The notes under the pieces are model-generated. The model searched no databases. It was not told where the DNA came from and saw only the letters and a program-made list of their open reading frames with translations. The position numbers were made by a program, and so were the translations under genes. A stretch of 18,579 nucleotides of DNA from a virus (lineage: Duplodnaviria > Heunggongvirae > Uroviricota > Caudoviricetes): IMG/VR virus record IMGVR_UViG_3300039366_000108; one strand, 5' to 3'. Numbering within the stretch: position 1 is the first letter of the stretch; every line of letters begins with the position of its first letter. Positions 13,311 through 13,596 of this stretch are shown piece after piece.

Positions 13311-13596
13311 CATCAAAAAGTGTCAAGTTGAGCAGCTTGCCAGCTTGCCAGGTTGACACTTTACACTCTGAACGCGAAAAAGTGTCAACCTCGCTGTAAG
13401 CCCCGCAATTACTGGGTTTGTGCCAGATTTACCACGTCAAAAAGCCGAAAAAACCGCGAAAAATGTCAAGTTGCCATGCTTAGAAATGCTAAGGTTTTTC
13501 GCGAAAAAGTGTCAAGTGTGTCAACCTGCGATATTAAGATTTATTAAGGTCTTAAGCCGGAAAGTGTCAACCAGCCCCCTAAGATTTCCTAAGGTG
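13311..13596. repeat. Array of at least 6 copies of AAAAAGTGTCAA(C/G) (one inverted), three as CGCGAAAAAGTGTCAA, plus CTAAG-containing dyads
   Basis: Copies at 13315, 13352 (inverted), 13378, 13460, 13505/13517, 13563; TAAGATTT(AT/CC)TAAGG at 13534 and 13579; palindrome CTTAGAAATGCTAAG at 13480. Confidence 0.6.

Follow-up and report, generated by a model that had tools for sequence, protein, structure and literature searches.

Introduction

To our knowledge, packaging in the phage-inducible chromosomal islands (PICIs) of Gram-negative bacteria is understood for a single case, that of Rpp acting with a lambda-type cos site. Where packaging depends on pac sites instead, these are notoriously hard to predict. 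The subject of this study is a dense array of short repeats (positions 13,311–13,596) in an 18,579-nucleotide stretch of viral DNA, IMG/VR record IMGVR_UViG_3300039366_000108 (hereafter the window). The array lies directly downstream of the gene for a 175-amino-acid (aa) helix-turn-helix (HTH) protein and upstream of the cargo of the island. With moderate confidence, we read it from sequence comparisons as a composite pac-type packaging site, analogous to Rpp/cosB, with a new protein family and several mimics of phage pac sites.

In the Escherichia coli island EcCICFT073, Rpp both blocks and redirects phage packaging, and RppA is a protein of 144 aa (Fillol-Salom et al., 2019; PMC6739421). In SPP1, the model phage for small terminases of the Terminase_2 family, pac spans promoters and the start of terS, which encodes the small terminase, and includes sets of direct repeats (PMC4737164). 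The pac site of P22, GAAGATTTATCTGAAGTCGTTA, is located inside gene 3 (PMC5261728; PMC11447400). In the Staphylococcus aureus pathogenicity islands (SaPIs), the pac site is followed by the accessory genes (PMC12829572).

Results

EcCICFT073 was located in the CFT073 genome (locus L109). There, three ATGTCCGGTT repeats, of which one is inverted, come after rppA, and then an exact copy of lambda cosN in inverted orientation and the 93-aa gene orf93. Exact cosN copies lie at L109 positions 21559 and 22298. The ATGTCCGGTT repeats surround an AT-rich stretch (L109 22094–22320) in an arrangement that resembles R3-I1-R2-R1 of lambda, and are candidates for the R elements of a PICI cosB. The island in the window is collinear with EcCICFT073 in the order int-alpA-Icd-DUF4222-primase-PerC...HTH. 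The array is directly followed, in many related islands, by a gene for a 59-aa homologue of the orf93 product, the 59-aa and 93-aa proteins sharing the termini MTxTEAxxLxxIRxxAGI... and ...Y(Q/H)WKKPxRxRR. On the strength of the collinear order and of this homology, the HTH gene and the array hold the positions of rpp and cos, respectively.

The array is built from two kinds of element, which we call S boxes and E boxes. An initial annotation, made from the letters of the window, had reported six or seven copies of a short motif within about 280 bp. This was borne out by a scan of the 18.6-kb window for AAAGTGTCAA with at most one mismatch, which found 7 matches, 6 of them in 13317–13570, against a mean of 1.7 in 200 dinucleotide shuffles, none of which (0/200) reached 7. 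The S box has the form AAAGTGTCAA(CC/GT), and the six boxes start at 13317 (+), 13353 (−), 13379 (+), 13460 (+, one mismatch), 13506 (+) and 13561 (+), so that five are exact and one is inverted. A further partial copy, GTGTCAACC, at 13518 brings the count to six or seven. Exact copies of the extended form CGCGAAAAAGTGTCAA lie at 13373 and 13500, and one with a single mismatch at 13455 (CGCGAAAAATGTCAA), giving the three extended copies annotated earlier. The three partner elements are likewise present as described, with coordinates that were right within 1–2 nt. The S boxes follow one another at irregular spacings of 36, 26, 81, 46, 12 and 43 nt. This irregularity, the absence of any Rfam match to the array, and the fact that Tandem Repeats Finder reports only an 8-bp microsatellite in it agree with the earlier statement that the array is neither CRISPR-like nor ToxI-like. 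A literature search for the array motif gave no result.

From left to right, the array begins with S1, AAAAAGTGTCAAGT, at 13315–13328 (+; core 13317–13326), which is followed by the 8-bp microsatellite, (CAGCTTGC) × 2.9, at 13333–13355. The inverted box S2, GGTTGACACTTT, then a degenerate copy TTTACAC, occupies 13351–13362 (−). Together with S3, CGCGAAAAAGTGTCAACC, at 13373–13390 (+), S2 forms a 12-nt inverted repeat with a 16-nt spacer. A spacer at 13391–13454 separates S3 from S4, CGCGAAAAATGTCAAGT, at 13455–13471 (+), whose single mismatch is replaced by the exact form in most relatives. The first E box, E1, is ATGCTTAGAAATGCTAAGGTTTTTCGCG at 13476–13503 (+), with the partner element ATGCTTAGAAATGCTAAGG beginning at 13476. 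It is joined by a 14-bp palindrome, TTTTTCGCGAAAAA (13495–13508), to S5, CGCGAAAAAGTGTCAAGT, which together with the abutting partial box S5b (GTGTCAACC, 13518–13526) spans 13500–13526 (+). Next comes E2a, ATTAAG-ATTT-ATTAAGG (ATTAAGATTTATTAAGG, 13533–13549), with a third TTAAG at 13552, for an overall extent of 13533–13556 (+). S6, GGAAAGTGTCAACC, lies at 13559–13572 (+), and the array ends with E2b, CCTAAG-ATTT-CCTAAGG (CCTAAGATTTCCTAAGG), at 13578–13594 (+). Each of the three E boxes consists of two half-sites at 10-bp spacing. The last three S boxes are each trailed by an E box 6–9 nt to the 3′ side, which suggests that every S + E pair is a composite unit for the island protein and for the small terminase (TerS) of a helper phage, comparable with the Rpp–TerS complex at cosB in EcCICFT073.

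A blastn search of the array against phage genomes returned a single kind of match, in which 13476–13503 aligns (26/28) with the terS gene of prophage-derived phages of E. coli. E1 corresponds there to the codons for MLRNARVFRA of terS in Escherichia phage vB_EcoS-606R9-type prophages, and the equivalent element of one related island (L057) is identical at 28/28 positions. The matched TerS proteins are 335–364 aa long and belong to Pfam Terminase_2, with relatives in Rac-SA53, in temperate phages of Klebsiella and Yersinia, in F116 and in Bcep22. When four terS lineages were aligned and their DNA was read at the homologous codons, the Rac-SA53 and Klebsiella site sequences, which differ from the 606R9-type one, also matched other island elements (19/20). 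In a blind scan of 3 kb around terS in three lineages, in which all 20-mers were compared with 66 unique arrays, every 20-mer matching at 18/20 or better fell at one homologous terS site, while the background maximum was 17. No match was obtained for the terS region of the Yersinia phage in the 20-mer scan. Judged by these alignments, the E boxes copy the sequence of a single terS-internal site of phages.

With additional terS genes from IMG/VR, the phage site resolves into a hexamer that is repeated after 10 bp in HTH-coding codons. Six variants were read: GCTTAG-AAAT-GCCAGG (encoding MLRNAR), GATAAG-AAAT-GATAAG (LIRNDK), CCTAAG-AAAT-CCTAAG (LLRNPK), GTTAAG-AAAT-GTTAAG (LLRNVK), CTTCAG-AAAA-CTTCAG (LLQKTS) and GTTAGC-AAAA-GTTAGT (LLAKVS). 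The half-sites of all six recur in island arrays, sometimes with the A-rich spacer turned T-rich. Thus, E2b of the window (CCTAAG-ATTT-CCTAAG) has the half-sites of the LLRNPK variant. The E2a element is found in islands as GTTAAG-(A/T)TTT-GTTAAG or, as in the window, ATTAAG-ATTT-ATTAAG, and the form in relatives, GTTAAG-(A/T)TTT-GTTAAGG, has half-sites equal to those of phage GTTAAG-AAAT-GTTAAG. Other islands carry GTTAGC-TTTT-GTTAGT, with its spacer changed from phage AAAA, CTTCAG-AAAA-CTTCAG, which is the same as in the phage, and the half-site GATAAGG. Each array holds 3–5 copies of the terS-site segment, in variants that fit different phage lineages, and in one from E. coli (L047/L052) the four E. 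coli variants all stand one after another. Across 19.3 kb of array sequence, hexamers recur exactly at 10-bp spacing 200 times, compared with 4.6 in shuffles, and spacing 10 is where the count is highest.

The correspondence between arrays and terS also led to a prediction. A 16-mer of group-II islands, CTAGGGAAAACTAGGG, for which no phage counterpart had been seen, was searched in IMG/VR and found in 68 stretches, 34 of which were islands. Among the 34 others, 17 carried it at the homologous terS position (AGYS..NADKIGPELLGKTRV, IGPELLGKTRV). The terS genes found in this way are otherwise very divergent, with proteins of 169–334 aa, and contribute a seventh half-site variant.

The phage site does not stand out by simple conservation. 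In closely related terS genes its local diversity ranks 743 of 1086 windows, several site variants coexisting there, and covariation was used as the test for this reason. The covariation set comprised 80 further terS genes, selected through peptide patterns that do not include the site. Residues at its two variable positions pair as a frame-shifted DNA repeat predicts (Q/S, T/D, K/E, R/Q, S/V and A/S), and particular residue pairs would thus be forced in the TerS HTH by a direct repeat with co-varying halves. In 68 unique divergent terS genes, 7-mers 10 nt apart match at 5.31 of 7 positions at the site, compared with 1.8 of 7 gene-wide and with 3.08 ± 0.15 (maximum 3.68) when the partners were permuted 2000 times. 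At least 6 of 7 positions match in 51 of the 70 anchored terS genes of the same set, against 9 of 1890 control windows, figures that kinship among the genes inflates and to which many distinct half-sites contribute. The co-variation of the two halves points to an element that acts at the DNA level and is not merely coding sequence, and it is a reasonable but unproven reading, made by analogy, that this terS-internal repeat is the pac recognition element of the phages. The codons concerned follow the HTH pattern (L/N)L-x-(K/N)-(T/P/V/L)-x-(V/I), in which the repeat is 6–7 nt long at 10-bp spacing (loci L419–L498 and L192–L351; reference L002, 4501–4528). Of 5426 complete E. coli genomes, 896 contain this terS family and constitute a potential pool of helpers.

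Conservation of the array was assessed in 104 related loci, 24 from a set with one genome per species and 80 from IMG/VR. Comparison with homologous islands had been proposed as a check in the initial annotation, and it upholds the S repeats: in ~95 of the 104 loci, exact copies of the 9-mer AAGTGTCAA are grouped immediately 3′ of the HTH-gene homologue, and elsewhere in the same loci the 9-mer occurs at chance level. S arrays persist beside homologues with as little as 38% protein identity, in hosts from Escherichia to Rouxiella and Pantoea. In one locus (L019), the protein shares the HTH only and an array is still present, 4 kb downstream. Among 48 unique copies of the fixed 8-mer AGTGTCAA, A precedes the core at −1 and −2 in 45, and CC or GT follows it, giving the consensus (G/A)AAAAGTGTCAA(CC|GT). 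The most widely conserved feature is the inverted pair of the S2/S3 type, found at ~26–27 bp spacing in nearly all groups. Across 29 arrays of the E. coli type, conservation relative to the window is 100% for S1–S3 and S5 and 99% for E1, compared with 80% for the 3′-end of the HTH gene and 45% beyond 13594. From this last drop, the array is the final block of the conserved backbone, with E2b as its terminal piece, and it is kept whatever cargo follows.

Two parts of the array fall outside the S and E boxes. The microsatellite CAGCTTGC varies from 1 to 5 copies among relatives, so that S1 and S2 are 27 to 59 bp apart; this may reflect neutral slippage or serve as a spacing switch. In the S3–S4 spacer, where the gap measures 70 nt, a block at 13401–13420, CCCCGCAATTACTGGGTTTG, is kept in Escherichia, Raoultella and Pantoea arrays, in the latter two in the form ..CCGYYNTTACTGGNTTTG.. 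The block matches neither the S box, nor the E box, nor the consensus for integration host factor (IHF), and may serve for cleavage or for the binding of a host factor.

The 175-aa protein is encoded at 12783–13310 (+). In its AlphaFold model (predicted local distance difference test score 87), an N-terminal winged HTH (residues ~1–44) is connected through a disordered linker to a well-folded alpha/beta domain at the C-terminus, for which the predicted topology is alpha-beta-beta-beta-alpha, like that of a double-stranded RNA-binding domain (dsRBD). In structure comparison the HTH fold matches TerS/Nu1, RppC and Xis, with BldC, Cox and AlpA-type proteins among its neighbours, and the sequence matches the N-terminus of the terS family PHROG 57 at 2e-6. 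The earlier description of a winged helix like that of the terminase small subunit at the N-terminus is in line with these matches. Homologues are confined to Enterobacterales and are all annotated as hypothetical. In an alignment that reaches down to 33% identity, the first 41 residues, which form the HTH, are almost invariant. The S boxes are specific to the islands, and their presence co-varies with this invariant HTH; most simply, the 175-aa protein would bind the S boxes through it.

Membership of the Rpp family was considered and rejected. The N-terminal winged HTH has the fold of lambda TerS (Nu1), as in Rpp, but the C-terminal domain is predicted to be alpha/beta and dsRBD-like instead of a helical homodimerisation domain. 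A search of the PDB with the single sequence and with a profile gave no match to the Rpp structures 6HLK and 6HN7, and hhalign aligned only 28 HTH columns with RppA, at a probability of 30%.

The proposed packaging site and its alternatives

A packaging site (cos/pac-like) or a binding array for the neighbouring HTH protein had been suggested in the initial annotation, and it is this option that we favour, as the array sits in the rppA/cos slot of EcCICFT073 and its partner elements are near-identical to the terS site. In the proposed mechanism, the 175-aa protein would bind the S boxes via its HTH, and the TerS of a helper phage would recognise the E boxes as its own pac site. The island protein, probably by means of its C-terminal domain, would then recruit or stabilise the terminase on island DNA. 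Packaging would start at the array and run rightwards through the defence cargo to attR. This direction is suggested by the E boxes, all of which lie in the orientation of the terS coding strand, toward the cargo and attR, and is taken from the general behaviour of pac phages. The several E variants would allow the use of several helper specificities, and the target helpers would be headful phages with a Terminase_2 small terminase (SPP1/F116/Rac-SA53-like). The layout of the island, with the site followed by the GapS1 defence cargo and then attR, fits the order of pac and accessory genes in SaPIs.

A cos site of a known type was rejected. Lambda cosN (GGGCGGCGACCT) has only 3-mismatch matches in the window, at chance level and none of them near the array, and the 19-nt cos of P2/P4 is not present in the window. 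The physical ends of the DNA were not readable from contigs, the IMG/VR contigs having no terminal repeats and boundaries that are predictions. Two Logan contigs break ~80 nt before the array, within the HTH gene, which is probably an effect of assembly.

Several observations weigh against a pac-type packaging site. Among 50,697 phage records, none contained a homologue of the 175-aa protein, which also lacks profile similarity to the Terminase_2-type TerS family and detectable homology to Rpp beyond the HTH; proteins of the HTH_17 type are, moreover, often excisionases or regulators. No cleavage site was identified in the array. E2a and E2b keep the phage half-sites and have the spacer changed from AAAT to ATTT, and a search for an exact phage counterpart of E2b (CTAAGATTTCCTAAGGT) found only islands and one chance match. 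Island and presumed helper reside together in only three IMG genomes, without statistical support, and many of the 104 related loci are close relatives, so that counts over them overstate independence. The pac reading of the terS repeat is itself drawn from the covariation and from the analogy with SPP1, and the DNA-binding domain of SF6 TerS shows little specificity in vitro for the SPP1 repeats (PMC4737164).

The match between E boxes and the terS site would equally be expected if the array were only a decoy, in which the E boxes and the S-bound protein titrate the small terminase of the helper and island packaging starts elsewhere. Interference of this kind is plausible, given that Rpp blocks packaging as well as redirecting it (PMC6739421), and could coexist with packaging. 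As the sole function of the array, we consider it unlikely. Some packaging signal is required by a satellite, and the window showed no other candidate; the array occupies what is the proven cos position in EcCICFT073; and the uniform orientation of the E boxes fits directional packaging.

Transcriptional control is a comparably doubtful alternative, and one that could also coexist with packaging. Here the HTH protein would coat the S boxes in the manner of BldC, AlpA or Xis and control a promoter into the small downstream gene and the cargo, or one directed leftwards. Its structural neighbours Xis, BldC, Cox and AlpA-type proteins do bind repeat arrays. Each S box carries TTGACA on the opposite strand, and one promoter-like match on the minus strand (13515 to 13486) makes use of it. 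In many relatives, the start of the 59-aa gene lies 5 nt beyond the final E box, so that E2b supplies its Shine-Dalgarno sequence. Promoter-like matches are, however, no more frequent than in shuffles (2 found, 1.6 expected), no S box is found near any other promoter of the island, and the likeness of the partner elements to the terS site of several lineages is left unexplained by regulation. The array is conserved irrespective of the cargo downstream, and a promoter-like site at 13620–13648 lies outside the conserved block, which makes the initial suggestion of a regulator of the membrane-protein promoter less likely as well.

It had been recognised from the outset that a decayed remnant of coding sequence would speak against a functional array. 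In part this applies, as the E boxes share homology with a coding segment of terS, E1 reading MLRNAKVFR in one frame, and the 8-bp microsatellite demonstrates that slippage does occur in the array. That the E boxes are debris of a former island terS gene, multiplied by slippage, is nevertheless very improbable. Only one terS segment of 20–28 nt is represented, in several copies and in lineage-specific variants of which some are identical at 28/28 positions, conservation is higher in the intergenic block than in the coding sequence beside it, and the array persists across genera at 38–60% protein identity.

Equally remote is a second replication origin, a partition site or an excision architecture with sites for a recombination directionality factor (RDF): boxes in both orientations beside a DNA-binding protein, and an HTH fold shared with excisionases, would suit one, but the classical PICI origin already lies directly 3′ of the primase gene, no ParA/ParM-type gene is annotated in the window, and the att cores and their 23-nt arm repeat are at least 4.2 kb away, with no S box in the att regions.

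The composite pac-type site is thus the reading that we retain, and more specific proposals can be derived from it. A single satellite may carry mimics of pac for at least 3–4 TerS specificity classes, each coupled to an adaptor box, with the corollary that pac of the very large Terminase_2 TerS family is a 10-bp-spaced hexamer repeat in HTH codons; we put this forward tentatively, as somewhat less probable than not. If so, the repeat halves and the residues they encode diversify together and pac specificity is readable from sequence, and many unrelated helper phages could package the island or be subject to its interference. The terS repeat would then offer a sequence-readable candidate pac element for a terS family common in E. 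coli and many other phages, and such a rule would help to predict transduction starts, packaging specificity and helper-satellite pairs. The array itself would be the first described pac-type counterpart of the Rpp system, with an unrelated adaptor protein and copies of the sites of several helper lineages. It would also provide a testable explanation for a broad helper range and for the placement of defence genes just downstream, as in a lateral-transduction layout. The island family occurs in many other Enterobacterales as well, and carries defence cargo such as GapS1.

The island and its other genes

The window is 100% identical to the chromosome of E. coli APEC E123, where the island sits at tRNA-Thr, beside proA. 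It is an EcCICFT073-type PICI integrated at tRNA-Thr, and the island region was found in 167 of 5426 complete E. coli genomes. Duplication of the tRNA 3′-end and of the arm repeats at both flanks defines an island of 16.9 kb from att core to att core. The tRNA-Thr 3′-end lies at ~885–907 on the attL side and has its copy at ~17773–17792, and the att cores and arm repeats together extend over ~890–1042 and 17692–17792. An exact 23-nt repeat, ATTGGGGGTACTTTTGGGGGTAT, at 1020–1042 and 17692–17714 (~115 nt inside attL and ~60 nt inside attR), is a doublet of TTGGGGGTA; it probably represents arm-type integrase binding sites. At 820–833, where the tRNA-Thr gene region begins, the bases are masked by a run of N. 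The array was rejected as an RDF or att-arm site, since attR is 4.2 kb away and attL 12 kb, when such sites are expected within ~200 bp of the core.

Like other PICIs, the island has an integrase at an att site with flanking direct repeats, an alpA gene, and a pri/rep gene with an iteron origin on its 3′ side; it is within the range of ~10–18 kb, lacks phage structural and lysis genes, and carries its accessory genes at the far end. The tyrosine-type integrase (Pfam) is encoded at 1074–2288 and AlpA at 3359–3556 (Phage_AlpA, 2e-19). Between AlpA and the primase there follow an AntA-type protein, an Icd-like gene with several small genes, and a DUF4222 gene. The region also contains a 512-aa open reading frame (ORF; 4476–6014) that has no RefSeq annotation and of which only the last ~50 residues match phage repressor/Icd-like families. 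RefSeq places an Icd-like gene at 5793–6014 in this region, together with two antisense genes that include YlcI/YnfO. Over 5001–5500, the AT skew is strongly negative. The 512-aa ORF is probably spurious.

The D5-type primase (7300–9105) has D5_N, DUF5906 and Pox_D5 domains. The intergenic region immediately downstream (9106–9476, GC 0.35) contains the iteron GGTAGACAGTT ~14 times, on either strand and frequently in 11-bp doublets, around AT-rich stretches. The island probably has its replication origin here, as repeats directly 3′ of the primase gene around AT-rich DNA are the layout that defines PICI origins (PMC6092414). As an origin, the repeat array was rejected: it is 4.2 kb from the primase gene, the GC content across 13001–13500 is ~0.48, and the GGTAGACAGTT iterons are elsewhere. 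The primase gene (8091–8112) and the HTH gene (12914–12935) have in common a 22-nt direct repeat, CAGCCCACCAGCAGAGGGGGAA, with 20/22 positions identical, which may be due to chance.

ProQ/FinO and then PerC are encoded 3′ of the primase. At 10438–11580, followed by several small genes, a gene for a predicted lipoprotein of 380 aa takes the position of the capsid-like gene of EcCICFT073. Similarity to that capsid-type gene was sought and not found; the product is instead a conserved lipoprotein with an LTGC lipobox and a coiled coil, and as such gives no clue to the type of helper. It is 86–90% identical across Escherichia, Enterobacter, Klebsiella and Serratia, its neighbours being far less conserved. 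In the cargo 3′ of the array, the GapS1 defence gene is located at 15403–17001. A PADLOC search gave no result.

Comparison with known packaging systems

The closest likeness is to Rpp and the cosB region of EcCICFT073. Both islands are collinear and place a small TerS-like winged-HTH protein beside repeats of mixed orientation, ahead of an orf93-type gene, and in the logic proposed here a protein of the island would likewise redirect the helper terminase to island DNA. The two differ in that the repeats of the present array are AAAGTGTCAA and not ATGTCCGGTT, that lambda cosN is absent, and that the C-terminal domain of the protein is alpha/beta and not helical. The array, moreover, copies a terS-internal site of another terminase family, which points to helpers of the pac type. 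Lambda cosB itself (R3-I1-R2-R1) is similar in offering several boxes, one of them inverted, to a winged-HTH packaging protein, whereas the island array has neither cosN nor a recognisable IHF consensus, contains more boxes, and would have a pac-type partner.

Among pac phages, P22 also has its pac within the terS gene, with a short direct repeat GAAG...GAAG, and E2a shares the 9-mer AAGATTTAT with it; gp3 belongs, however, to a different TerS family. We judged the resemblance of E2a to P22 pac to be coincidental, the match being short (estimated chance ~0.03) and the Terminase_2 site of the GTTAAG type fitting better. The pacL-pacC-pacR region of SPP1/SF6, with its boxes A, B and C (PMC4737164), belongs to the same TerS family as the genes matched by the E boxes, and has in common with them short direct repeats at helical spacing within and close to the start of terS, which codes for the HTH, and T/A tracts in phase that suggest bent DNA. 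Unlike the SPP1/SF6 elements, those of the island lie outside terS and occur in multiple copies, in several variants of specificity, each paired with an island-specific S box. In SaPI1 and SaPIbov1, finally, a satellite specificity protein (SaPI TerS) and its cognate site (SaPI pac) redirect a headful terminase, as is proposed for the 175-aa protein and the array. SaPI TerS is a true homologue of phage TerS, whereas the 175-aa protein is not, and the site on the present island would mimic the helper's own.

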